From Octopus vulgaris (taxonomy: Eukaryota), in assembly GCA_951406725.2 (NCBI GenBank), contig OX597814.1:118730001-118794000 (forward strand): DNA of 64,000 bases. The letters are read 5' to 3'. Below, piece by piece: positions 321 through 35,905 of this stretch. The position numbers and the translations under genes were made by a program. The notes under the pieces were generated by a model. That model had not been told where the DNA came from. It searched no databases and saw nothing but the letters and a program-made list of their open reading frames with translations. Positions within the stretch are counted from its first letter, which is position 1. Each line of letters starts with the position of its first letter.

Positions 321-722
321 AATAGTTGTCAGAGACCATGAAGAAAAAAAATGCTTTCTAATTGATGTATCAATACCGGCTGATGACAACGTGTCTCTAA
401 AAGAAATGGAGAAACTCTCAAAATACAAAGACCTGGAAATAGAGGTAACTAGAATGTGGAATCTGAAAACAGAAACAATTCCTATCATAGTAGGTGCATT
501 AGGCATGATAAAAAAATTCAGACAAATACATAACAAAAACACCAGGACTTACAAACACATATAACATACAGAAAATTGCACTACTAGGCACTGCACACAT
601 CCTACGCAGAACACTTTCCATACAATAACCATCAGAGCATCACAACAAATCACAGCACATACCCAAGGCACACAGAGCTGCGCTCGGTAGTGAAGTGAAA
701 GCACGCTATAAAAATAAAACTA

Positions 723-727
<5 letters not shown>
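321..727 (+). mobile_element. R4/Dong-type retrotransposon, family A, 5'-truncated copy (RLE C-terminus)
   Basis: ORF 295-564 reads VVRDHEEKKCFLIDVSIP...EKLSKYKDL...IPIIVGALG (PD-(D/E)xK restriction-like endonuclease end); same 3' UTR as the neighbouring copies; embedded in (AAT)n. Confidence 0.88.
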
Positions 728-1700
<973 letters not shown>

Positions 1701-1702
1701 TT

Positions 1703-3432
<1,730 letters not shown>

Positions 3433-5083
3433 AAAACTGTGAAAGCATTCAGCGATGACATCGGGATGGAGTTTGGACTTGAGAAGTGTGCCAAGGAACA
3501 CTTTCCAGAAACGAAATGTGAAGACCACAAATTCAGTCGTGTTAGATGTTGACACAGTCATAAGAGAGCTTGAGCAAGGACAAACATACAAATATTTAGG
3601 GATAAATGAAGGCTCTGGTATTCAGCATGCAAGCATGAAGAGAAGATCAGGAAGGAATGTTATAGGAGAGTTCGTGCAGTCCTGAAATCTGAACTAAATG
3701 CACGTATCAAGGTGTTAGCTATAAATTCCTTAGCAGTTCCAGTTGTTACTTATAGCTACAATGTGTTGAACTGGAATATGAGTGAAGTAAAGAATATAGA
3801 TAGGAAAATACGCAAGCTGCTGAGTTGTAATAGGATGCACCACCCAAAGGCAGACGTAGATCGCCTTTACCTTCCCAGAGCCCAAGGAGGTCGAGGCCTG
3901 ATCCAATTTGAACTATCTTACAAAACAACCACAATTGGACTGGCCAAATATCTCGAAATATCGAATGACTGGATGCTAAAGCTCGTGGAAAATCACGAGA
4001 CGAAAGAAGCTTCATTCTAGCATAAAGGAAAGCAAAAAATTTGCTATTGATCTCGTGCAGGATACCCAAACTGAACAACCCGAGGGAAGTACGGCAACTA
4101 TTGTTGCAAAAAGGTAAAAATAATGGCAACGAAAAAAGCGCACGAGCAATTGGCTGATAGGTGGGAAGAGAAAACTCTGCACGGCAAATATGTGGCCCGC
4201 AGCAAACAAGCTGATGTTGACCAGAAGCAAACCCATCAGTGGCTACGGAGCTCAGGGCTAAAAGCAGAGAGCGAAGGTTTCATCCTGGCTGCTCAAGATC
4301 AAAGCCTATTAACCCAGAACTACCAGGCCAATGTGATGAAAAATGGAGCAGACCCAAAATGCCGATTCTGCAACGACATGATTGAAACAGTGGACCACCT
4401 AATCTCTGGATGTAAAGTATTAGCCCCAGTGGAGTATAAATTAAGACATGACAGAGTTGGCCACTATCTACATTGGCTAATAGGTCGGTATTACAATATC
4501 AAAACTGCCGACAATTGGTATAATCACCACCCTGAGGCTGTAACTGAAGGAGAAAATGTAACCATTCTGTGGGACTTCCCAGTACATACAGACCGAACCA
4601 TCAAGGCCAATAAACCAGATATTGTTGTGAAAGACCAAAACAATAAAGTTTACTTATTGATCAACATGAGCATCCCCTGTGATCATAATATCTCAGCGAA
4701 AGAGTTTGACAAGCTCAGAAAATATAAAGACCTACTCATTGAAATTGAGAAAATGTGGCATCTCAAGGCGGTTACAATACCAGTGATCGTAGGAGCACTA
4801 GGAATGATCAAGAAGGGAACCGAAAATTATATGAGAATGATCCCTGGCTTACCATCCCTGCAAGAAGTGCAAAAGATTGTCTTAACTGGTACATCACACG
4901 TATTGAGAAGAGCATTGTCGATGTGAGAACTGTTGCTGCTCATGTATTTTAATTTAACTTGAAAAAAAAATGAACGAGTTTGGTTTAATCGCCTACCAAT
5001 GTATACTATGAGTTTCTTTGCCCTAGGAGTCGGGAAGACACTCGGCAAGAAATGGACGCAAATTTGAAAGAAGAAAAAAAAAG
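3433..5083 (+). mobile_element. R4/Dong-type retrotransposon, family B, 5'-truncated (RT thumb, CCHC, RLE), frameshifted
   Basis: YKYLGINE, LYLPRAQGGRGL, CRFCNDMIETVDHLISGC, RHDRVG, KPDIVVKD, KLRKYKDL across ORFs 3455-3685, 3712-4020 and 4123-4926; highly similar to the minus-strand copy at 34155-35905; flanked by (AAT)n. Confidence 0.93.
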
Positions 5084-12332: not shown

Positions 12333-12615
12333 TAGTCTGTTGTGTCTGGGCAGAGTCATTTTCTTTTTGTGCCTTATAAGGTAACACACTCACCGGTAAA
12401 ACTTCAACTTATGTCTTATTTTTATTTATTAAAATTTTTAAGAAATAAGTTGGAATTATAATGCCTTATAATGTAACACACTCACCGGTAAAATTTCCAC
12501 TTATTTCTTTTTTTTATTTTCCTAAAATTTTCAAGAAATAAGTGGAAATTTTACCGTTCAGTGTGTTACATTATAAGGCACAAAAAGAAAATCACTCTCT
12601 CCAGACACAACAGAA
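12333..12615. repeat. Direct plus inverted repeat structure (fold-back)
   Basis: TGCCTTATAAnGTAACACACTCACCGGTAAAA occurs twice (12370, 12462), then in reverse complement at 12533-12615; another copy of one arm lies at 44358-44401. Confidence 0.75.
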
Positions 12616-13419
12616 TATGCTTCAACACACTTGCAAACCAAATCCAACAGCGAAATGTAATAAATATAAAAAAAATAAATGACTCCTACTAGAAAATCCT
12701 AAGAACTTTATGCAAAATAAAGAGGATCCTAAATACAAAATATATGGAGATTGCGAATAAACAATGAATCATTGTTTAGCGGTACTACAGCGATATCTGT
12801 GTACAGACATTATGCTCCCACAAATTGTAAAGTGCAGTAGTATTATTAAAATAGTTCAGTACAAAAGTACATAGAGCATTGTATTAGAAATCAACAATGA
12901 TATTATTCATTGGAATACGGTATTTTAAGAAACGACGCTTAAATATCATTGTTGCTATTTATCACTGCGAAAGAACAGTGACTCCTAAAGGATGAAGGAA
13001 ATCCATGAGACAATATGTCTGAAAAGAAAATGGAAAACTATATGCAAATATCACAAGCCTGAAATTGAGATAGCCAGACAGTTTGAACTGAATAAAAGAA
13101 CTTCTACGGAAATTGTATTGTTAACGATGAAAATAAAATGCAACAAAAAATTACTAACACAAATACATATTAAAATATGACCGCGAGGTACTTCTCATTT
13201 ATTACGTCGAGTAATGTAAGCAAATACATATGTAGACAAATACAACAAAACAAATGATTTATCCAGTAAATATAACAATACAATATTGTGTGTGTATGTG
13301 TTTGTCCGTGCGAGTGCGTGTGTATCTATCTGTGTCTGAAAGTGTGTCCATGTGTGTGTAGGCGCCCGTGCACGCGTTCTTAAAATGAAATGTTTCATAT
13401 ATAATTTGTATTGAATCCA

Positions 13420-13980
13420 AACGTTAGGACGCTGGCGAAATGCTTAGTGGCATTTCGTCTGTCGTTATGTTCTGAGTTCAAATTCCGCCGAGGTCGACTT
13501 TGCCTTTCAACCTTTCGGGGTCGATTATATAAGTACCAGTTACGCACTGGAGTCGATATAATCGACTTAATTCGTTTGTCCGTCCTTGTTCGTCCGCTCT
13601 GTGTTTAGCCCCTTGTCGGTAGTAAAGAATTAGGTATTTCGTCTGACGCTACGTTCTGAGTTCAAATTCCGACGAGGTCGAATTGCCTTTCATCCTTTCG
13701 GGGTCGATTAAATAAATACCAGTTACACACTGGGGTCGATATAATCGACTTAATCTGTTTCTCCGTCCTTGTTCGTCCCCTCTGTGTTTAGCCGCTTGTG
13801 GGTAGTAAAGAAATAGGTATTTCGTCTGTCTTTACGTTCTAAGTTCAAATTCCGCCGAGGTCCACTTTGCCTTTCATTCTTTCGGTGTCGATAAATTAAG
13901 TACCAGTCGCGTACTGAGGTCGATCTAATCCAATTAATCCCCTCCCCAAAATGTCGGGTCTTGTGCCTAGAGTAGAAAAT
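13420..13980 (+). mobile_element. Three tandem units of a tRNA-derived SINE (GAGTTCAAATTCCGCCGAGGTCGAC family)
   Basis: Three ~180-bp repeats with B box GAGTTCAAATTCC; the first two end ...CTCTGTGTTTAGCCnCTTGTnGGTAGTAAAG. Confidence 0.85.
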
Positions 13981-14039
13981 TATTTGTATTGAATCCTGTA
14001 TTTATCTCTTGTGGTGAATGAACAGACATTTATATAAGT

Positions 14040-14081
14040 ACTAGCATTAAAGACCCGTCGTTGCCGGGTCATAGTGCTAGT
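14040..14081. mobile_element. Helitron-like 3' terminus (GC hairpin plus CTAG), palindromic
   Basis: ACTAGCATTAAAGACCCGTCGTTGCCGGGTCATAGTGCTAGT: GACCCG/CGGGTC stem with CTAG about 10 nt away on both sides. Confidence 0.5.
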
Positions 14082-14200
14082 GCATGTATATGTGTGTATA
14101 TATATATGTGTAAATATTACATGTACATCTACATATATACATCTACACATAAAATACAAAATACAAATTTATATCTTGATATCGCTAGTGATAACAATAC

Positions 14201-14528
14201 TCAAAATATATAACAGACTGGAATTGTTAGCCCGTCTCTTGTAATTTCGATCAATTGTATCTTGTCCTCACTCTTGTATAGAAGTGTGGCTACAATCCAG
14301 CCTACCTCAATTTCTGGGGGGGGGGGGGGTTTAAATATTTTTCCGGTACGTCCTACGTCCCAGATATAAAGGTAAGAATAAGATATTTCCACTTTGCAAG
14401 TTCGAGTCGTGTACTCCCTTGCACGCTCCGTTGACTCGAACCTTGTTTCTATTGGGGCGAATTTACCGCCTCTGATTAGATACCTTTCATAGTCGCACCA
14501 AGACACTTTTCGAAGGTGCTTTCCTCCA
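14201..14528 (-). pseudogene. Decayed ORF1/gag homologue, 3' half (the target locus interrupted by the array)
   Basis: Translates MEESTFEKCLGATM, then after a frameshift YLIRGGKFAPIETRF...PPEIEVGWIVATLL; this aligns with array protein EIAEIEKCLGDIM...YVSRGKKFGTVEVRC...PPEVKTEWLATAIL. Confidence 0.75.
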
Positions 14529-14772
14529 TGTGATTTTATTATTACCCACAAGGGGCGAACATAGAGGGGACAATACAATCGGGGAACTTAAAATAAGAAA
14601 GCGAATGACAAGAAAAGGAAAAAATAAAAGTAAAAAATGACATATGAAAGAATATTTACAATGAGATGTAAATGCCCACTCGATCCCCGGAATCGAGAGG
14701 TTACATTTTCGTCACATATATTTCACAATATTTTCTTTTTTTCTCTTCTTTCTTCTCTCTCTTCTCACAGTT

Positions 14773-15957
14773 CTATACATATTCCATGATAGTTTTCAAT
14801 TCTCTAAAGTCTATCACTGAGCCCTCAGGCAGCCGCTCTCTCACTCGAACACTCGTGTAAAATGTTACACTCTCACCGGCAGCTCTGAGGAACTCAGCGA
14901 CTCTTTCTTCGGGGATTAGAGCAGTCTCCTGCCACTGATCGGTCATCCTGTCGACCCACACATGTCCCTCCGTATTACTTGTCAAATCCTTCATTTCAGG
15001 GCAGAAATGGAAGGTTACTAACTTGTAGAAGCAGTAATCTTGTTTCCGTCCTACGTTTTCCTTCATTTTTCTTTTCGGGCTTATTTCTTCCTTGTTCTCC
15101 TCTCTTTGTTTCTCTCTTTCTCTCTTTTTGCCTTCTTTTCTTTCTCCTTCCTTCTCTTGTCTTTTTGGTTCTTTGTCTGTTCTCTCTTTCTCTCGTGTTT
15201 TATGTTCCTTTTCTTTTTCTTTTTGTGTGCCGTCTTTTCTTTTCGTTTGATTCTGATCTCTCTCTTGTTTTTTTCCTGTTGTTTCTTTTTCCTTTTTTTT
15301 TTCCTGACTCTGTTTTGGTTCTATTTCTTTCTTTTCTTTTATTTCTTTTTCCTTCATTGACTTATTATTTCCTTTCTCTTGTTGTTTTGTTTCCTTTTCT
15401 ATGTTTTCTTTTTCATTTACCGTATTCTTCTTTTCTTCGAGTTCCTGCTCGCACTCCGCTACGAATTCGTATAACGGGCACTCTTTTTTAATGTGCCCCC
15501 TTGTCCCGCACAAGTAGCAGTTTGGCTTTCTTCCCTCTACAATTACACTGAGGGTTTTCTCATCTTCAATTTCTATTCTGTAGGGGAACCTTTCAATGTC
15601 CTCTTTTGTGGCCATCAAACACAGTTCTACCCCATATCCTCTCCAGTTTATCGCGTTGGACTCCTTAAAGGATTCCACCTCCACTTCCTCTTCTGCTGCT
15701 CCTAGAATAGCTGTTGCCAGCCATTCTGTTTTTACTTCTGGGGGTATATTCGGGATTTTAACCCGGACCCCTCTTCTTCCCTTGTATGAGGGCCACATTA
15801 TAAATGTTTCCGCTCTTAGTACAGTGGTAGCCAGTGAGGCTGCAATTTCTTCCGTTGCACATCTCACCTCCACCGTACCAAATTTCTTGCCTCTACTCAC
15901 GTAGGTCGATTTCCCCATTATGTCTCCCAGACATTTTTCGATTTCTGCTATCTCCAC
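14773..15957 (-). CDS. ORF1/gag-like nucleic-acid-binding protein, unit 1 (394 aa from GTG; likely true start is the ATG at 16178, one frame off)
   Basis: CX2CX4HX4C knuckle CYLCGTRGHIKKEC preceded by VIVEGRKPN and an RRM-like region (VRVKIPNIPPEV), then a long K/E-rich tract; L1/Tx1-type ORF1 architecture. Confidence 0.8.
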   Translation of the reverse strand: MEIAEIEKCLGDIMGKSTYVSRGKKFGTVEVRCATEEIAASLATTVLRAETFIMWPSYKGRRGVRVKIPNIPPEVKTEWLATAILGAAEEEVEVESFKESNAINWRGYGVELCLMATKEDIERFPYRIEIEDEKTLSVIVEGRKPNCYLCGTRGHIKKECPLYEFVAECEQELEEKKNTVNEKENIEKETKQQEKGNNKSMKEKEIKEKKEIEPKQSQEKKKEKETTGKKQERDQNQTKRKDGTQKEKEKEHKTREKERTDKEPKRQEKEGERKEGKKREREKQREENKEEISPKRKMKENVGRKQDYCFYKLVTFHFCPEMKDLTSNTEGHVWVDRMTDQWQETALIPEERVAEFLRAAGESVTFYTSVRVRERLPEGSVIDFRELKTIMEYV

Positions 15958-16558
15958 TCTTGCCAGTTTCTTTGTATTTTTGTCTTGTGTTCTATATGTT
16001 ACAGTCTTGTTTTCTTTGTCCTCTTTTGCTTTCGCGGGGGGATTAGCTTCACGCTATCACCCTCCCTTTTTAATAGCTTTTCATATTCTTTGAGTTTACT
16101 CTTCTCAAAGAAAACATCCTTCACGATTATCGACGAATCATTATTTTTCTTTCCCGTGACCCCCGCGTAAGTCGCCATGACTAGAGGGTCAATTCACCTT
16201 CTTCGGAAGGTTTCCACACGTGGAGGCAAACGCCTCGCGCGATAATAATCAATTTACACAACAAAATTTCACTGTCTAGTCACAGATAACAACACACGTG
16301 GGTAAATTTCCTCGCTGTGATTTTATTATTACCCACAAGGGGCGAACATAGAGGGGACAATACAATCGGGGAACTTAAAATAAGAAAGCGAATGACAAGA
16401 AAAGGAAAAAATAAAAGTAAAAAATGACATATGAAAGAATATTTACAATGAGATGTAAATGCCCACTCGATCCCCGGAATCGAGAGGTTACATTTTCGTC
16501 ACATATATTTCACAATATTTTCTTTTTTCTCTTCTTTCTTCTCTCTCTTCTCACAGTT

Positions 16559-17742
16559 CTATACATATTCCATGATAGTTTTCAATTCTCTAAAGTCTAT
16601 CACTGAGCCCTCAGGCAGCCGCTCTCTCACTCGAACACTCGTGTAAAATGTTACACTCTCACCGGCAGCTCTGAGGAACTCAGCGACTCTTTCTTCGGGG
16701 ATTAGAGCAGTCTCCTGCCACTGATCGGTCATCCTGTTGACCCACACATGTCCCTCCGTATTACTTGTCAAGTCCTTCATTTCAGGGCAGAAATGGAAGG
16801 TTACTAACTTGTAGAAGCAGTAATCTTGTTTCCGTCCTACGTTTTCCTTCATTTTTCTTTTCGGGCTTATTTCTTCCTTGTTCTCCTCTCTTTGTTTCTC
16901 TCTTTCTCTCTTTTTGCCTTCTTTTCTTTCTCCTTCCTTCTCTTGTCTTTTTGGTTCTTTGTCTGTTCTCTCTTTCTCTCGTGTTTTATGTTCCTTTTCT
17001 TTTTCTTTTTGTGTGCCGTCTTTTCTTTTCGTTTGATTCTGATCTCTCTCTTGTTTTTTTCCTGTTGTTTCTTTTTCCTTTTTTTTTCCTGACTCTGTTT
17101 TGGTTCTATTTCTTTCTTTTCTTTTATTTCTTTTTCCTTCATTGACTTATTATTTCCTTTCTCTTGTTGTTTTGTTTCCTTTTCTATGTTTTCTTTTTCA
17201 TTTACCGTATTCTTCTTTTCTTCGAGTTCCTGCTCGCACTCCGCTACGAATTCGTATAACGGGCACTCTTTTTTAATGTGCCCCCTTGTCCCGCACAAGT
17301 AGCAGTTTGGCTTTCTTCCCTCTACAATTACACTGAGGGTTTTCTCATCTTCAATTTCTATTCTGTAGGGGAACCTTTCAATGTCCTCTTTTGTGGCCAT
17401 CAAACACAGTTCTACCCCATATCCTCTCCAGTTTATCGCGTTGGACTCCTTAAAGGATTCCACCTCCACTTCCTCTTCTGCTGCTCCTAGAATAGCTGTT
17501 GCCAGCCATTCTGTTTTTACTTCTGGGGGTATATTCGGGATTTTAACCCGGACCCCTCTTCTTCCCTTGTATGAGGGCCACATTATAAATGTTTCCGCTC
17601 TTAGTACAGTGGTAGCCAGTGAGGCTGCAATTTCTTCCGTTGCACATCTCACCTCCACCGTACCAAATTTCTTGCCTCTACTCACGTAGGTCGATTTCCC
17701 CATTATGTCTCCCAGACATTTTTCGATTTCTGCTATCTCCAC
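16559..17742 (-). pseudogene. ORF1/gag-like, unit 2, frameshifted in an A-run
   Basis: ORFs 16867-17742 and 16559-16852 together reproduce the unit 1 protein. Confidence 0.75.
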
Positions 17743-18344
17743 TCTTGCCAGTTTCTTTGTATTTTTGTCTTGTGTTCTATATGTTACAGTCTTGTTTTCT
17801 TTGTCCTCTTTTGCTTTCGCGGGGGGATTAGCTTCACGCTATCACCCTCCCTTTTGAATAGCTTTTCATATTCTTTGAGTTTACTCTTCTCAAAGAAAAC
17901 ATCCTTCACGATTATCGACGAATCATTATTTTTCTTTCCCGTGACCCCCGCGTAAGTCGCCATGACTAGAGGGTCAATTCACCTTCTTCGGAAGGTTTCC
18001 ACACGTGGAGGCAAACGCCTCGCGCGATAATAATCAATTTACACAACAAAATTTCACTGTCTAGTCACAGATAACAACACACGTGGGTAAATTTCCTCGC
18101 TGTGATTTTATTATTACCCACAAGGGGCGAACATAGAGGGGACAATACAATCGGGGAACTTAAAATAAGAAAGCGAATGACAAGAAAAGGAAAAAATAAA
18201 AGTAAAAAATGACATATGAAAGAATATTTACAATGAGATGTAAATGCCCACTCGATCCCCGGAATCGAGAGGTTACATTTTCGTCACATATATTTCACAA
18301 TTTTTTTCTTTTTCTCTTCTTTCTTCTCTCTCTTCTCACAATTC

Positions 18345-19520
18345 TACACATATTCCATGATAGTTTTCAATTCTCTAAAGTCAATCACTGAGCCCTCAGG
18401 CAGCCGCTCTTTCACTCGAACACCGTGTAAAATGTTACACTCTCACCGGCAGCTCTGAGGAACTCAGCGACTCTTTCTTCGGGGATTCAGAGCAGTCTCC
18501 TGCCACTGATCAGTCATCCTGTTGACCCACACATGTCCCTCCATACTACATGTCAATTCCTTCATTTCAGGGCAGAAATGGAAGGTTACTAACTTGTAGT
18601 AATCTTGTTTCCGTCCTACGTTTTCTCTCTTTTTCTTTTCGGGCTTATTTCTTCCTTGTTCTCCTCTCTTTGTTTCTCTCTTTCTCTCTTTTTGCCTTCT
18701 TTTCTTTCTCCTTCCTTCTCTTGTCTTTTTGGTTCTTTGTCTGTTCTCTCTTTCTCTCGTGTTTTATGTTCCTTTTCTTTTTCTTTTTGTGTGCCGTCTT
18801 TTCTTTTCGTTTGATTCTGATCTCTCTCTTGTTTTTTTCCTGTTGTTTCTTTTTCCTTTTTCTTTTCCTGACTCTGTTTTGGTTCTATTTCTTTCTTTTC
18901 TTTTATTTCTTTTTCCTTCGTTGACTTATTATTTCCTTTCTCTTGTTGTTTTGTTTCCTTTTCTATGTTTTCTTTTTCATTTACCGTATTCTTCTTTTCT
19001 TCGAGTTCCTGCTCGCACTCCGCTATGAATTCATATAACGGGCACTCTTTTTTAATGTGCCCCCTTGTCCCGCACAAGTAGCAGTTTGGCTTTCTTCCTC
19101 TACAATTACACTGAGGGTTTTCTCATCTTCGATTTCTATTCTATAGGGGAACCTTTCAATGTCCTCTTTTGTGGCCATCAAACACAGTTCTACCCCATAT
19201 CCTCTCCAATTTACTGCGTTGGACTCCTTAAAGGATTCCACCTCCACTTCCTCTTCTGCTGCTCCTAGAATAGCTGTTGCCAGCCATTCTGTTTTTACTT
19301 CTGGGGGTATATTCGGGATTTTAACCCGGACCCCTCTTCTTCCCTTGTATGAGGGCCACATTATAAATGTTTCCGCTCTTAGAACAGTGGTAGCCAGTGA
19401 GGCTGCAATTTCTTCCGTTGCACATCTCACCTCCACCGTACCAAATTTTTTTCCTCTACTCACGTAGGTCGATTTATCCATTATGTCTCCCAGACATTTT
19501 TCGATCTCTGCTATCTCCAC
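18345..19520 (-). pseudogene. ORF1/gag-like, unit 3, several frameshifts
   Basis: ORFs 19023-19520 and 18616-19077 plus a broken C-terminus. Confidence 0.75.
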
Positions 19521-20125
19521 TCTTGCCAGTTTCTTTGTACTTTTGTCCTTGGGTTCTATATGTTACAGTTTTGTTTTCTTTGTCCTCTTTTGCTTTCGCG
19601 GGGGGATTAGCTTCACGCTATCACCCTCCCTTTTGAATAGCTTTTCATATTCTTTGATTTTACTTTTCTCAAAGAAAACATCCTTCACGATTATTCGACG
19701 AATCATTATTTTTCTTTCCCGTGACCCCCGCGTAAGTCGCCATGACTAGAGGGTCAATTCACCTTCTTCGGAAGGTTTCCAAACGTGGAGGCAAACGCCT
19801 CGCGCGATATTAATCACTTTACACAACAAAATTTCAACTGTCTAATCACAGATAACAACACACGTGGGTAAATTTCCTCGCTGTGATTTTATTACTACCC
19901 ACAAGGGGCGAACATAGAGGGGACAATACAATCGGGGAACTTAAAATAAGAAAGCGAAATGACAAGAAGGGAAAAAATAAAAATAAAAATGACAAATGAA
20001 AGAATATTTACAATGAGATGCAAATGCCCACTCGATCCCCGGAATCGAGAGGTTACATTTTCGTCACATATAGTTCACAATTTTTTTTCTTTTTTCTCTT
20101 CTTTCTTCTCTCTCCTCTCACAATC

Positions 20126-21303
20126 TCACACGTATTCCATAATACTTTTCAAGTCTCTAAAGTCAATCACTGAGCCCTCAGGCAGCCGCTCTTTCACTCG
20201 AACACCCGTGTAAAAAATTACACTCTCTCCAGCTGCTCTGAGGAACTCAGCGACTCTTTCTTCGGGGATCAGAGCAGTCTCCTGCCACTGATCAGTCATC
20301 CTGTTGACCCACACATGTCCCTCCATACTACATGTCAATTCCTTCATTTCGGGGCTGAAATGGAAGGTTATTAACTTGTAGTAATCTTGCTTCCGTCCTA
20401 CGTTTTCTCTCGTTTTTCTTTTCGGGCTTATTTCTTCCTTGTTCTCCTCTCTTTGTTTCTCTCTTTCTCTCTTTTTGCCTTCTTTTCTTTCTTCTTCCTT
20501 CTCTTGTCTTTTTGGTTCTTTGTCTGTTCTCTCTTTCTCTCGTGTTTTATGTTCCTTTTCTTTTTCTTTTGTGTGCCGTCTTTTCTTTTCGTTTGGTTCT
20601 GTTCTCTCTCTTGTTTTTTTCCTGTTATTTCTTTTTCCTTTTTCTTTTCCTGACTCTGTTTTGGTTCTATTTCTTTCTTTTCTTTTATTTCTTTTTCCTT
20701 CGTTGACTTATTATTTCCTTTCTCTTGTTGTTTTGTCTCCTTTTCTATGTTTTCTTTTTCATTTACCGTATTCTTCTTTTCTTCAGTTTCCTTCTCATAC
20801 TCCGCCATGAATTCATATAACGGGCACTCTTTTTTAATGTGCCCCCTTGTCCCGCACAAGTAGCAGTTTGGCTTTCTTCCCTCTACAATTACACTGAGGG
20901 TTTTCTCGTCTTCGATTTCTATTCTATAGGGGAACCTTTCAATGTCCTCTTTTGTGGCCATCAAACACAGTTCTACCCCATATCCTCTCCAATTTACTGC
21001 GTTGGACTCCTTAAAGGATTCCACCTCCACTTCCTCTTCTGTTGCTCCTAGAATAGCTGTTGCCAGCCATTCTGTTTTTACTTCTGGGGGTATATTCGGG
21101 ATTTTAACCCGGACCCCTCTTCTTCCCTTGTATGAGGGCCACATTATAAATGATTCCGCTCTTAGAACAGTGGTAGCCAGTGAGGCTGCAATTTCTTCCG
21201 TTGCACATCTCACCTCCACCGTACCAAATTTTTTTCCTCTACTCACGTAGGTCGATTTATCCATTATGTCTCCCAGACATTTTTCGATCTCTGCTATCTC
21301 CAC
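20126..21303 (-). pseudogene. ORF1/gag-like, unit 4, frameshifted in an A-run
   Basis: ORFs 20428-21303 and 20126-20347 match the unit 5 protein. Confidence 0.75.
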
Positions 21304-21907
21304 TCTTGCCAGTTTCTTTGTACTTTTATCCTGGGTTCTATACGTTACAGTTTTGTTTTCCTTGTCCTCCTTTGCTTTCGCGGGGGGATTAGCTTCACGC
21401 TATCACCCTCCCTTTTGAATAGCTTTTCATATTCTTTGATTTTACTTTTCTCAAAGAAAACATCCTTCACGATTATTGCCGAATCATTATTATTCTTTCC
21501 CGTGACCCCCGCGTAAGTCGCCATGACTAGAGGGTCAATTCACCTTCTTCTGAAGGTTTCCAAACGTGGAGGCAAACGCCTCGCGCGATATTAATCACTT
21601 TACACAACAAAATTTCAATGTCTAATCACAGATAACAACACACGTGGGTAAATTTCCTCGCTGTGATTTTATTACTACCCACAAGGGGCGAACATAGAGG
21701 GGACAATACAATCGGGGAACTTAAAATAAGAAAGCGAAATGACAAGAAGGGAAAAAATAAAAATAAAAATGACAAATGAAAGAATATTTACAATGAGATG
21801 CAAATGCCCACTCGATCCCCGGAATCGAGAGGTTACATTTTCGTCACATATAGTTCACAATTTTTTTTTTCTTTTTTCTCTTCTTTCTTCTCTCTCCTCT
21901 CACAATC

Positions 21908-23086
21908 TCACACGTATTCCATAATACTTTTCAAGTCTCTAAAGTCAATCACTGAGCCCTCAGGCAGCCGCTCTTTCACTCGAACACCCGTGTAAAAAAT
22001 TACACTCTCTCCAGCTGCTCTGAGGAACTCAGCGACTCTTTCTTCGGGGATCAGAGCAGTCTCCTGCCACTGATCAGTCATCCTGTTGACCCACACATGT
22101 CCCTCCATACTACATGTCAATTCCTTCATTTCGGGGCTGAAATGGAAGGTTATTAACTTGTAGTAATCTTGCTTCCGTCCCACGTTTTCTCTCGTTTTTC
22201 TTTTCGGGCTTATTTCTTCCTTGTTCTCCTCTCTTTGTTTCTCTCTTTCTCTCTTTTTGCCTTCTTTTCTTTCTTCTTCCTTCTCTTGTCTTTTTGGTTC
22301 TTTGTCTGTTCTCTCTTTCTCTCGTGTTTTATGTTCCTTTTCTTTTTCTTTTTGTGTGCCGTCTTTTCTTTTCGTTTGGTTCTGTTCTCTCTCTTGTTTT
22401 TTTCCTGTTATTTCTTTTTCCTTTTTCTTTTCCTGACTCTGTTTTGGTTCTATTTCTTTCTTTTCTTTTATTTCTTTTTCCTTCGTTGACTTATTATTTC
22501 CTTTCTCTTGTTGTTTTGTCTCCTTTTCTATGTTTTCTTTTTCATTTACCGTATTCTTCTTTTCTTCAGTTTCCTTCTCATACTCCGCCATGAATTCATA
22601 TAACGGGCACTCTTTTTTAATGTGCCCCCTTGTCCCGCACAAGTAGCAGTTTGGCTTTCTTCCCTCTACAATTACACTGAGGGTTTTCTCGTCTTCGATT
22701 TCTATTCTATAGGGGAACCTTTCAATGTCCTCTTTTGTGGCCATCAAACACAGTTCTACCCCATACCCTCTCCAATTTACTGCGTTGGACTCCTTAAAGG
22801 ATTCCACCTCCACTTCCTCTTCTGCTGCTCCTAGAATAGCTGTTGCCAGCCATTCTGTTTTTACTTCTGGGGGTATATTCGGGATTTTAACCCGGACCCC
22901 TCTTCTTCCCTTGTATGAGGGCCACATTATAAATGATTCCGCTCTTAGAACAGTGGTAGCCAGTGAGGCTGCAATTTCTTCCGTTGCACATCTCACCTCC
23001 ACCGTACCAAATTTTTTTCCTCTACTCACGTAGGTCGATTTATCCATTATGTCTCCCAGACATTTTTCGATCTCTGCTATCTCCAC
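21908..23086 (-). CDS. ORF1/gag-like nucleic-acid-binding protein, unit 5 (392 aa from GTG)
   Basis: Uninterrupted ORF with the same CCHC knuckle; variant of the unit 1 protein. Confidence 0.8.
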   Translation of the reverse strand: MEIAEIEKCLGDIMDKSTYVSRGKKFGTVEVRCATEEIAASLATTVLRAESFIMWPSYKGRRGVRVKIPNIPPEVKTEWLATAILGAAEEEVEVESFKESNAVNWRGYGVELCLMATKEDIERFPYRIEIEDEKTLSVIVEGRKPNCYLCGTRGHIKKECPLYEFMAEYEKETEEKKNTVNEKENIEKETKQQEKGNNKSTKEKEIKEKKEIEPKQSQEKKKEKEITGKKQEREQNQTKRKDGTQKEKEKEHKTREKERTDKEPKRQEKEEERKEGKKREREKQREENKEEISPKRKTRENVGRKQDYYKLITFHFSPEMKELTCSMEGHVWVNRMTDQWQETALIPEERVAEFLRAAGESVIFYTGVRVKERLPEGSVIDFRDLKSIMEYV

Positions 23087-23448
23087 TCTTGCCAGTTTCT
23101 TTGTACTTTTGTCCTGGGTTCTATACGTTACAGTTTTGTTTTCCTTGTCCTCCTTTGCTTTCGCGGGGGGATTAGCTTCACGCTATCACCCTCCCTTTTG
23201 AATAGCTTTTCATATTCTTTGATTTTACTTTTCTCAAAGAAAACATCCTTCACGATTATCGACGAATCATTATTTTTCTTTCCCGTGACCCCCGCGTAAG
23301 TCGCCATGACTAGAGGGTCAATTCACCTTCTTCTGAAGGTTTCCAAACGTGGAGGCAAACGCCTCGCGCGATATTAATCACTTTACACAACAAAATTTCA
23401 ACTTCTAATCACAGATAACAACACACGTGGGTAAATTTCCTCGCTGTG

Positions 23449-23530
23449 CTCAAATCTTCTTTCTTCTCTACATTGTATACTTTATAGACAATAGTCTTTT
23501 CTTTAATTTTCTTTAATTACTTCCATTTCT
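23449..23530 (-). pseudogene. Decayed ORF1/gag homologue, 5' half (continues across the array into 14528)
   Basis: Minus strand reads IKEKTIVYKSIQCREERRFEH and joins in frame through CACA to MEESTFEKCLG; compare the array's ENKTVTYRTQDKNTKKLARVEIAEIEKCLG. Confidence 0.65.
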
Positions 23531-23769
23531 GCACGCTAATTTTATTTTTAATTTATTCTCATTCATGTGAAAACACTTATTCAAGTTCAAATCATTGATG
23601 CAATTTTATACCAATTGCTATTTTTACTTTTGTTATGTTACTTTAGTTTGATTTTAATTATTACTTACTACATATAATTCAATTGTTATTATTATTTTTC
23701 TTGTTAAAGTGAAAGTATCTGACATAAAATAGAGAAACTTTTTTGTTTCACGTTTAACACGTAATACTG

Positions 23770-23972
23770 AAATAGTGGAGAAGATATGATGTTGCTATGG
23801 TCTCGCTCTAGGCAAGAAGTTGAATAATTCTTTTTTTGCCCATGAAACTACATGGACCCTAAGTAAGGCATGTGTAAAATTTGAATGGAATTGGTTGTGT
23901 AGTTCTCAAGTTTTAGGGAATTGTAGCGGAGAAGATATGATATTGCTGTGGGCTCGCGCTAGGCAAAAATTC
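23770..23972. repeat. Direct repeat (GGAGAAGATATGATnTTGCT...CTAGGCAA twice) with a non-autonomous Helitron-like internal segment
   Basis: Repeats at 23773-23820 and 23923-23970; the intervening AAAATTTGAATGGAATTGGTTGTGTAGTTCTCAAG resembles motifs common in non-autonomous Helitrons (inference). Confidence 0.4.
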
Positions 23973-24769
23973 AAATTATAGAGGTTTTCCATTAATACAA
24001 AACTTTTCATATCAAGTGGCAACATTATAGAGAAGGTAGATATATAGACAAAAATTTGGATTTAAGTTTTAAGAACATTTGAGGTAGTGGAGCCCATCAA
24101 CTGACTGACTAAGATTCAGTTGTTCCAGACTACTGTAAGGTTCTGAGAGGGAAGAACAAATGAAAAGAGACAATAAAGATTTTCTAATTATAGAATTGGG
24201 GTAAAGGGGATGTCAGGGCTCCATATAAGGAATTTATGTAGAAAACAGCATCGTCACAACTAAATGCCAATTACTACTATTTGATGGACAGATTCGGCGT
24301 TAGGGGAACTAGGTCAATGTCAAGTGGTCACAATATCATTCACAGAGAATGCAGAGACATTACAAACCCTATGCACATCATTACAACAGTTGGTCTATAA
24401 GTTCCAAGTTCTTTGACACGTTAGAATAAAGGAAAAAATATAAATCTAAAACGTATTCAATTTGGAGAAAAAGACTATCACTTATTATGAGTAGGCATAG
24501 TACTTATTAACTGGGGGGAAAAGCCTTATTAATCAAGTGAACATATTAGGGGTCAAAATATATATTAAGAAAGATGGAAGAGGGAAAATCAAAGGAGGAA
24601 GATATTCATAGGTTTAGTAGAAGGTGATATTTTATAATATGAAGAGAGATAATTTAGAAGAGTAAATTATTCAAATTTTATGGATAGTGAGTTGATATTA
24701 ACGAATTAAAATATAGGATCTGTTGGAAATAAAATTTACTACCTGCGGATAAAAGTTAATGAGGAAAAA

Positions 24770-25665
24770 ATATCTTAGGTTAATTATATATTAAGAAATG
24801 GGAGTGAGATAATTAAGATGAACCAAATAGTTTCCCTAGGGAAATAGGATTAATACTACTTAGTATTGGAGAACATTATAAAAAAGAATTTAATTCTAAG
24901 TTTGCAATGAAGTTTTTTAATCATCTATGAGTGTTTAACTAAAACCACTATGGTATATTCTTTCCTATTTGGTTAAATATATTTTGTAAAGATATCTTAG
25001 GAGGCGCAGAAGTGGCTGTGTGGTAAGTAGCTTGCTAACCAACCACATGGTTCCAGGTTCAGTCCCACTGCGTGGCATCTTGGGCAAGTGTCTTCTGCTA
25101 TAGCCCCGGGCCGACTAATGCCTTGTGAGTGGATTTGGAAGACGGAAACTGATAGAAGCCTGTCGTATATATGTATATATATGTTTGTGTGTGTGTTTGT
25201 CTGTCTGTGTTTGTTCCCCTAGCATTGCTTGACAACCGAAGCTGGTGTGTTTACGTCCCCGTCACTTAGCGGTTCGGCAAAATATACCGATAGAATAAGT
25301 ACTGGGCTTACAAAGAATAAGTTCCGGGATCGATTTGCTCGACTAAAGGCGGTGCTCCAGCATGGCCGCAGTCAAATGACTGAAACAAGTAAAAGAGTAA
25401 AAGAGTAAGAGAGACTAATTATATATTAAGAAATGGAAGTGAGATAATCAAGGTGAACCGAATAGTTTCTTTAGGGGCATAGGATTCATACTATTTAGTA
25501 CTCCTACTATTTGGGATTCATACTATTTAGGATTCCAACTATTTAGATTCATACAGTTTAATTTTAGAAAAAATAATTCAATTTTAATTTTGCAGTGAAG
25601 TTTTTTAGTCAACTATGAATGTTAAATTGAAAACCAGTATGGTATATTCCTTCTTATTTGATTAT
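24770..25665. repeat. Diverged ~200-bp tandem duplication with a SINE inserted at the start of the second unit
   Basis: TAATTATATATTAAGAAATGG...GGTATATTC at 24781-24960 and 25416-25650; the leader ATCTTAGG|TAATT of unit 2 is split by the SINE. Confidence 0.75.
24982..25412 (+). mobile_element. Full-length tRNA-derived SINE (same family as 10013-10455)
   Basis: GGCGCAGAAGTGGCTGTGTGGTAAG (A box), GGTTCAGTCCC (B box), TTGGGCAAGTGTCTTC, internal TA/TG repeats, (AAAGAGT)n tail. Confidence 0.9.
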
Positions 25666-34154: not shown

Positions 34155-35905
34155 TTTTTTTTTCTTCTTTCAAATTTTCTTCCGTTTCTTGCCGAGTGTC
34201 TTCCCGACTCCTAGGGCAAAGAAACTCATAGTGTATATTGGTAGGCGATTAAACCAAACTCAGTAGTTCGTTCATATTTTTTTTTTTTTTTTTTTTTGTA
34301 AAGTTAAATTAAAATACATGAGCAGCAACAGTTCTCACATCGACAATGCTCTTCTCAATACGTGTGATGTACCAGTTAAGACAATCTTTTGCACTTCTTG
34401 CAGGGGTGGTAAGCCAGGGATCATTCTCATATAATTTTCGGTTCCCTTCTTGATCATTCCTAGTGCTCCTACGATCACTGGTATTGTAACCGCCTTGAGA
34501 TGCCACATTTTCTCAATTTCAATGAGTAGGTCTTTATATTTTCTGAGCTTGTCAAACTCTTTCGCTGAGATATTATGATCACAGGGGATGCTCATGTCGA
34601 TCAATAAGCAAACTTTATTGTTTTGGTCTTTCACAACAATATCTGGTTTATTGGCCTTGATGGTTCGGTCTGTATGTACTGGAAAGTCCCACAGAATCGT
34701 TACATTTTCTCCTTCAGTTACAGCCTCAGGGTGGTGATTATACCACTTGTCGGCAGTTTTGATATTGTAATGCCGACTTATTAGCCAGTGGAGATATTGG
34801 CCAACTCTGTCATGTCTTAATTTATACTCCACTGGTGCTAAGACTTTACATCCAGAGATTAGGTGGTCCACTGTTTCAATCATGTCGTTGCAGAATCGGC
34901 ATTTTGGGTCTGCTCCATTTTTCATCACATTGGCCTGGTAGTTCCGGGTTAATAGGCTTTGGTCTTGAGCAGCCAGGATGAAACCTTCGCTCTCTGCTTT
35001 TAGCCCTGAGCTCCGCAGCCACTGATGGGTTTGCTTCTGGTCAACATCAGCTTGTTTGCTGCGGGTCACATATTTGCCGTGCAGAGGTTTCTCCTCCCAC
35101 CTATCAGCCAATTGCTCGTGCGCTTTTTTCATTGCCGTCATTTTCACCTTCTTTGCAACAATAGTTGCCGTACTTCCCTCGGGTTGTTCAGTTTGGGTAT
35201 CCTGCACGAGATCAATAGCAAATTTTTTGCTTTCCTTGATGATAGAATGAAGCTTCTTTCGTCTCTCGTGATTTTCCACGAGCTTTAGCATCCAGTCATT
35301 CGATATTTCGAGATATTTGGCCAGTCCAATTGTGGTTGTTTTGTAAGCTAGTTCAAATTGGATCAGGCCTCGACCTCCTTGGGCTCTGGGAAGGTAAAGG
35401 CGATCTACGTCTGCCTTTGGGTGGTGCATCCTATTACAACTCAGCAGCTTGCGTATTTTTCTATCTATATTCTTTACTTCACTCATATTCCCGTTCAACA
35501 CATTGTAGCTATAAGTAACAACTGGAACTGCTAAGGAATTTATAGCTAACACCTTGTTACGTGCATTTAGTTCAGATTTCAGGACTGCACGAACTCTCCT
35601 ATAACATTCCTTCCTGATTTTCTCTTTCATGCTTGCATGCTGAATACCGGAGCCTTCATTTATCCCTAAATATTTGTATGTTTGTTCTTGCTCAAGCTCT
35701 CTTATGACTGTGTCAACATCTAACACGACTGAATTTGTGGTCTTCACTTTCCCTTTCTGGAAAGTGGCCTTGGCACACTTCTGAAGTCCAAACTCCATCC
35801 CGATGTCATCGCTGAATGCTTTCACGGTGCGCAATAGGCCTTCAAGTTCATTATTGTCTTTACCATAAAGTTTTAAGTCATCCATATAAAATAGATGGCT
35901 TATTT
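34155..35905 (-). mobile_element. R4/Dong-type retrotransposon, family B, 5'-truncated at RT domain 5
   Basis: Begins HLFYMDDLKLY; bounded by (TTA)n on both sides; 3' UTR matches 4927-5083. Confidence 0.95.
34335..35885 (-). CDS. C-terminal 516 aa of an RT/CCHC/restriction-like endonuclease polyprotein (uninterrupted, N-terminally truncated)
   Basis: (Y)MDDLKLY, FGLQKCA, YKYLG, GGRGL, CRFC...HLISGC, RHD, KPDIVV..LIDMSIP, KLRKY. Confidence 0.9.
   Translation of the reverse strand: MDDLKLYGKDNNELEGLLRTVKAFSDDIGMEFGLQKCAKATFQKGKVKTTNSVVLDVDTVIRELEQEQTYKYLGINEGSGIQHASMKEKIRKECYRRVRAVLKSELNARNKVLAINSLAVPVVTYSYNVLNGNMSEVKNIDRKIRKLLSCNRMHHPKADVDRLYLPRAQGGRGLIQFELAYKTTTIGLAKYLEISNDWMLKLVENHERRKKLHSIIKESKKFAIDLVQDTQTEQPEGSTATIVAKKVKMTAMKKAHEQLADRWEEKPLHGKYVTRSKQADVDQKQTHQWLRSSGLKAESEGFILAAQDQSLLTRNYQANVMKNGADPKCRFCNDMIETVDHLISGCKVLAPVEYKLRHDRVGQYLHWLISRHYNIKTADKWYNHHPEAVTEGENVTILWDFPVHTDRTIKANKPDIVVKDQNNKVCLLIDMSIPCDHNISAKEFDKLRKYKDLLIEIEKMWHLKAVTIPVIVGALGMIKKGTENYMRMIPGLPPLQEVQKIVLTGTSHVLRRALSM

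Follow-up and report, generated by a model that had tools for sequence, protein, structure and literature searches.

Two features of the system described here, tandem growth through a target-site duplication (TSD) and the targeting of DNA transposons by Tx1 elements, have already been described elsewhere. In Drosophila, R1 generates a 14-bp TSD and its tandem copies, inserted at the 5' end of the resident element, are separated by this TSD, while some R1 transcripts bring flanking target sequence into the new junction (PMC2718515). Tx1 families are known to target piggyBac, Mariner and Harbinger elements, Tx1-Mar and SINEU-3 being located in Mariner-N4_AMi, Xenopus Tx1 in Tx1D and Tx1-9_AMi in Harbinger, and SINEU-3 forms tandems in which the TSD is sandwiched by sequential insertion (PMC4494074). 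Active L1-Tx1 families are given without targets in the accessible text of PMC13282606. Regarding elements of reduced coding capacity, HAL1 (half-L1) is a non-autonomous L1 derivative that encodes only ORF1p and has arisen repeatedly (PMC5753468), and in HeT-A/TART a gag-only element and an autonomous helper build head-to-tail arrays in one direction, with transcription tied to the upstream neighbour (PMC5537684).

The array analysed here was probably built by successive insertions, from the oldest to the newest, at a single spot of a Helitron in Octopus vulgaris. As in R1, copies are separated by the TSD and added at the 5' end of the resident; the spacer, however, is not always identical to the target, since half of the first insertions carry a variant of the sequence at the 5' junction, hereafter the head. 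The R1 target is 28S rDNA and its spacer is described, in the accessible text, as the 28S sequence itself (PMC2718515), whereas in the octopus a Helitron serves as the target and the spacer drifts and is exchanged among families. The similarity to Tx1-Mar and SINEU-3 lies in the combination of an L1/Tx1-like element and a non-autonomous partner that target a non-autonomous DNA transposon, but the octopus partner (element A) encodes ORF1, the host is a Helitron and arrays reach up to 23 units; neither a polar order nor a heritable head is stated for the former pair in the accessible text (PMC4494074). Likewise, target specificity and tandem arrays are not stated for HAL1 in the accessible text of PMC5753468, whereas A and two further families, C and D, use the site of the autonomous element B. 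HeT-A/TART resemble A and B in pairing a gag-only element with a helper and in their polar head-to-tail arrays, although HeT-A is added to chromosome ends without TSD (PMC5537684) and growth of A/B is internal, at a nick. The initial reading of the window from sequence alone (the sequence-only reading) had named no described family that targets its own 5' end; the mechanism is nevertheless not unprecedented, given R1 and SINEU-3. What seems to be added is the Helitron target, a drifting head passed between families and shared by them, and a strong bias of ORF1-only elements towards occupied sites, of which we could find no description in the accessible literature outside Repbase, subscription journals and supplements; the supplements of the cited papers may hold further Tx1 targets. 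As far as the literature outside Repbase and subscription journals shows, Helitrons thus join the safe havens of L1/Tx1-like elements.

Elements and organization of the array

The window, i.e. the whole stretch of 64,000 nucleotides under analysis (G000:C1:118730001-118794000), contains, at 14532-23447 of the minus strand, five 1.78-kb units of element A. The protein encoded by each unit is ORF1-like and has a CCHC knuckle (zf-CCHC, E=7.5e-5), and there is no RT. Element B, of 5.25 kb, has the same insertion site and tail as A. Its ORF2 matches Exo_endo_phos (APE; E=1e-13), RVT_1 (E=5e-31) and zf-RVT (E=4e-9), the best PDB matches of the endonuclease being L1 endonucleases, and its ORF1 is 38% identical to that of A over 177 aa, with a zf-CCHC match of its own that falls below the cut-off. 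An ORF2 with APE, RT and a C-terminal zinc finger, preceded by a CCHC-type ORF1, is what characterizes the L1/Tx1 group, and on the basis of these domains and of the nearest solved endonucleases B is classed as an L1/Tx1-like APE-RT element; the name Tx1 is carried by none of the 97 homologues or of the cluster members listed. A is comparable to HAL1, with ORF1 only and a 3' tail in common with the autonomous B, and it is likely to be the non-autonomous partner of the latter. At least three ORF1-only families (A, C and D) use the site of B; C and D are further ORF1-type families, with 5' ends similar to GTCGCGTTTTTTTGCG, whose insertion points either coincide with this nick or precede it by 10-27 bp; at L095, L121, L125, L136 and L143 they lie upstream of A. 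Sixty further stretches were fetched, yielding 99 full-length A copies, which are a chosen subset and not all copies. In 73 of these 99 a run of six C (window 16021-16036 and equivalent positions) ends the ATG-started ORF after around 59 codons, while 19 have seven C, which join it to the main ORF1 frame. The break could correspond to recurrent slippage, to a dead but mobile ORF or to a -1 frameshift.

Read along the minus strand, the array is preceded by the Helitron left (5') arm (23448..23975), which ends in GATTTGAGC before the nick and here lacks the TC terminus, and is followed by the right (3') arm (14041..14531), which begins with the original target 12-mer ACATGGAGGAAA (14520..14531) and finishes with a hairpin (14052-14070) and CTAG (14041-14044), then T. 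The presumably oldest unit, of lineage A1 (14532..16306), adjoins the right arm, the putative nick lying between 14532 and 14531; its main ORF1 frame with zf-CCHC occupies 14773-16053, and an N-terminal piece of 59 aa is in a different frame. The first insertion created the head ACAGCGAGGAAA (16307..16318), with two positions different from the target; it was probably RNA-borne, an identical head being present in the C7 array. A second A1 unit (16319..18091) shows a divergence of 0.17% with respect to its predecessor and likewise to a copy on C13, and is separated by a copy of the previous head, i.e. its TSD (18092..18103), from a unit of mosaic lineage (18104..19872) that differs by 2.2-2.9% from the other four. 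After another head copy (19873..19884) comes a unit of lineage A2 (19885..21652), with its nearest copy on C9 (0.46%), then a further head copy (21653..21664) and the A2 unit that would be the newest (21665..23435), whose nearest copy is on C2 (0.34%). The head at the junction with the left arm (23436..23447) would correspond to the growing end. All five heads in the window read ACAGCGAGG, yet the bodies of the units diverge by up to 5%, and three of the five units are nearest to copies on other contigs, which bear different heads.

The boundary sequences are those that had been noted initially: the reverse complement of CACAtgGAGGAAA at the outer boundary (14520-14532) and that of CACAgcGAGGAAA at the five remaining ones (16307, 18092, 19873, 21653 and 23436), with an 11/13 match between both that has a chance probability of ~2e-5 at a fixed position. 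TGTG, which had been read as the duplicated or overlapping sequence, is indeed present at 6/6 boundaries, but this is partly a coincidence. The tail of A ends in AAAATC and that of B in AAAACA (AAAACA|ACATGG), which places the nick after that base and assigns the first C of CACA to A.

The target is a non-autonomous Helitron

The flank of the array, labelled as host in the sequence-only reading, is not unique DNA: a 23-mer of the 3' flank gave 524 exact matches, versus 0 for the control, and on other contigs A copies are again accompanied by the two flanks. At the 30 loci that were read, the site was empty (GATTTGAAC|ACATGGAGGAAAGCACC) in 20 cases and filled in 10. Helitrons are recognized by a 5' TC, a 3' hairpin followed by CTRR, and insertion between A and T without TSD. 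The host of the array is a non-autonomous Helitron of ~1 kb, with the 3' hairpin in 26/30 loci, CTAG followed by T in 24 of these 26, and A preceding the initial TC in 14 of the 15 loci with a visible start. The empty site that had been reconstructed from the window is real: using exact degenerate patterns, 845 empty and 106 filled sites were found genome-wide, although these patterns differ in length and the resulting occupancy of 11% is therefore approximate. A hand count of the first 100 of 278 A/B tails placed 75 at the Helitron site or at a head derived from it, 7 at the site of a second Helitron or one like it, 6 before drifted heads and 12 elsewhere, at unrelated sites, these last being a point against the reading favoured here. 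A and B thus combine target-sequence preference with a TSD, as Tx1-type elements do, and the site-specific insertion with frequent tandem arrays anticipated in the sequence-only reading was confirmed; poly(A) tails, which had been named as a sign against it, are absent from the elements.

The second target element (L100, L101, L103, L104 and L151) has a Helitron-type end and a Pif1_2B fragment (E=3e-15). A and B enter it at two unrelated sites ~50 bp apart, CCGATAGG and ACTGAATAC being those occupied by A, with duplications of 9-23 bp and composite 5' ends; the pattern employed to search for exact empty sites of this second element retrieved none. The empty joint of the ~1-kb Helitron was also recognized, by 8-13 letters in common, on contigs of two other organisms, and in one case the TCTG head was present.

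Array polarity and preference for occupied sites

In all eight arrays of mixed lineages the youngest lineage, defined by the lowest between-locus divergence (1.0% versus 3.3%), was located at the Helitron-left end (P=0.008). The left junction alone retains the upstream Helitron arm, so that most new copies are added at this end and the units are ordered from oldest to newest. Stepwise changes of the head are seen in the arrays of C7 and C13; in the former (G000:C7:100086000-100132000, L114-L118), where 22 A and one B make up 23 units over ~44 kb in a single Helitron, the succession is ACATGG, ACATCG and ACAGCG. Polarity is not absolute, as one head at C10:34.73M matches the terminal target and not its neighbour. 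Arrays of this type provide the order of subfamily activity.

Each insertion also leaves a usable site for the next, as the sequence-only reading had proposed. Among the first 100 of 278 tails, counted by hand, those of A were found 28 times before another element and 3 times before an empty target, and the corresponding figures for B were 10 and 34. When only A copies preceding B were considered, these being pairs that local duplication cannot make, the result was 10 versus 3 at empty sites (P=6e-8 assuming equal access). One tentative explanation is that the resident element improves the site, so that ORF1-only elements effectively target the 5' ends of their helper and their own. A resident 5' end might offer the end of the incoming cDNA (head plus GAAATC...TTTGCG) more length for annealing than the empty Helitron does. 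The bias could instead reflect that few Helitron copies are accessible, with no effect of the resident; we find this rather doubtful, and nothing but the cause of the clustering would change with it. A preference for occupied sites is also seen in B (10/44 versus 11% expected, P=0.02), and if B came first and filled most of the accessible copies A would follow, but the bias of A is far stronger than that of B, and the arms of filled and empty Helitrons are equally diverged.

The head is a target-site duplication

An identical 12-mer was found on both sides of 13 of the 26 elements that adjoin the Helitron right arm, which sets the duplication at ~12 bp and not at the 4 bp initially proposed. 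In the other 13 first insertions, the head differed from its own target almost exclusively at positions 3-9. Where a B or C element has an unusual head, the A copy upstream repeats it in 10 of 13 cases (null mean 0.52, maximum 4 in 20,000), one of these ten heads being also the target variant of that locus, while copies less than 0.5% apart at different loci have the 9-mer in common in only 7 of 42 cases. Heads are tied to the locus more closely than to the lineage of the element, and the apparent mimic of the target is a TSD of ~12 bp (ACATGGAGGAAA) and not a fixed end of the element.

These data bear on the proposal, contained in the sequence-only reading, that the elements have evolved to target themselves, their fixed, encoded 5' end imitating the motif of the endonuclease, CACAnnGAGGAAA, so that any array junction becomes a target. 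AC and GAAA are in fact nearly invariant among 80 distinct locus-by-head combinations (with 0 and 4 mismatches at positions 1 and 2, and 1 and 5 at positions 11 and 12), the element 5' ends start with GAAAT, overlapping the GAAA of the target, and A favours occupied sites. Nevertheless, besides the association of the head with the locus and not with the lineage, only 25 of the 80 combinations fit ACAnnGAGGAAA, array order is polar, and C/D tandems form without target-like heads (L095, L121, L125, L136 and L143). At C20:32.44M and C10:47.70M the nick is still after GATTTGAAC although the letters downstream are TTTGCGGTCG or TCCGCGGTCG, both of them duplicated, and these insertions, together with those of A at CCGATAGG and ACTGAATAC, indicate that a fixed motif is not required. 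Evolved self-targeting is consequently very improbable, and the results are better accounted for by successive insertions that duplicate whatever lies beyond the nick.

The variant heads of about half of the first insertions were probably brought on the RNA, judging from how they are distributed among copies. Eight 9-mers other than that of the target are each present at 2-5 loci and one more, ACATCGAGG, at 6, the loci being unlinked. Discordant heads were common to close relatives in 11 of 26 cases versus 5.7 expected (P=0.0065), and for the remaining 15 no close relative bearing that head was observed; multi-base variants of this type were absent from all 96 empty sites included in the first 100 of 296 entries listed. 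Copies in the second Helitron keep a fossil head, GAAC+ACGTGTCGGAAATC, within an extended 5' end, suggesting that transcription would begin a few bases upstream of the former nick. Three other sources of sequence at the junction were considered and discarded. Hitchhiking with the Helitron does not explain the common heads, as the arms of loci with the same head differ by 1.8-12% and the bodies of the TCCG group by less than 1%. Long upstream replacement by the RNA is not supported by the left arms, equally diverged in 33 filled and 17 empty sites (P=0.23; three rearranged empty arms were left out). Finally, copying of the neighbour beyond its head was rejected because adjacent divergent copies are no more alike, in the 5' or the 3' body, than random pairs.

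The sequence of events that we propose takes established TPRT as its starting point. The endonuclease of B would nick the Helitron right after GATTTGAAC and prime reverse transcription, and a second cut ~12-17 bp downstream would duplicate whatever sequence is there, i.e. ACATGGAGGAAA in an empty Helitron or the head of the resident element in an occupied one. If transcripts begin in or just before the old TSD, the RNA would also carry a head, and the new junction would consist of a target prefix spliced to an RNA suffix, with AC or GAAA(TC) as a frequent point of union. Such splicing would let heads drift and pass between families. HeT-A is said to have 5' tags derived from its neighbour. Were the resident element also to improve the site, as tentatively suggested above, the target would evolve as a small replicator between RNA and DNA and between families, could depart completely from the sequence of the Helitron (C4:48.35M) and would constitute a dated insertion log, comparable to the leader end of a CRISPR array. 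Of the steps of LINE integration, second-strand priming is understood least. With junctions marked on both sides, by target polymorphism and by the RNA-borne head, the point of joining can be read for hundreds of events.

At the C4 locus just mentioned (L152, G000:C4:48347000-48356999) drift has altered the left junction of the array to either side of the nick (GAGCTGAC|AATCGCAG), and further A-like units are still present; heads like those of L152 occur at several other loci.

Local duplication and multi-unit insertion as unlikely alternatives

Arrays could also have arisen mainly by local DNA duplication (unequal exchange or slippage), or by assembly error, after one insertion. In support of this, 34 of 61 A copies preceding another A are nearest to a copy of their own array, so that local duplication may account for some of the long arrays' length, and C7 and C22 contain blocks of identical units with common private variants. 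As a general explanation it is very unlikely, since elements of A, B, C and D are found together in the arrays and the bodies of adjacent divergent copies show no excess similarity, and for the units of the window, with their divergence of up to 5% and their relatives on other contigs, it is unlikely as well.

The entry of several units per event, as read-through RNAs, concatemers or RNA template jumps, is a very unlikely origin for the arrays. Three A-B pairs are less than 0.7% apart in both members, and the concordance between the members of A-B pairs is weak (Mantel rho 0.24, P=0.027 with all 25 pairs; P=0.07 with a filter that dropped 7 of them), so that some pairs may travel together; contigs from runs guessed to be RNA span tail-head junctions. 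Against this, A copies 0.5-0.6% apart precede B copies that are 13-22% apart, close A partners were found for only 3 of 16 close B pairs, and a jump in a single event would not give A the unusual head of B in 10 of 13 cases. The concatemeric intermediate suggested at first for the window does not agree with its five units belonging to at least three lineages. One-by-one insertion at the Helitron spot thus remains the preferred reading for this array.

Two further candidates were discarded. RNA-guided targeting was considered for an antisense match (13-14/19) between the A 5' UTR and the empty site (P~0.01 versus shuffles), but this match is absent in B, C and D, weakened in the commonest A variant, retained by the copies in the second Helitron and folds as a local hairpin. 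A recombinase-type cassette array, suggested by the inverted repeat GTGGGTAA/TTACCCAC at the junction, was rejected because the right half is absent in most heads. No relevant Rfam match to a ribozyme or other known RNA was obtained in window 12500-25500.

Arrays of this kind would be misread in repeat libraries, either as satellites or as a fixed end of an element. Some other features of the window deserve mention. A tandem 184-bp SINE-like repeat at 13449-13939 includes in its unit the tail motif of the elements, CCCCTTGTGGGTAGTAAAGAAAT; a wide pattern for this tail gave 49,371 matches, often followed by AGGTAT and with several 184-bp tandem runs, as corresponds to an abundant SINE-like repeat, which may be mobilised by a related LINE and have built its tandems likewise. 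At 34335-35885, on the minus strand, a 516-aa ORF unrelated to B shows weak RVT_1 and zf-RVT matches, and from its motif we take it to resemble the C-terminal half of a restriction-like-endonuclease LINE. Lastly, a long (AAT/GAT)n microsatellite at 600-3600 gives rise to spurious ORFs.
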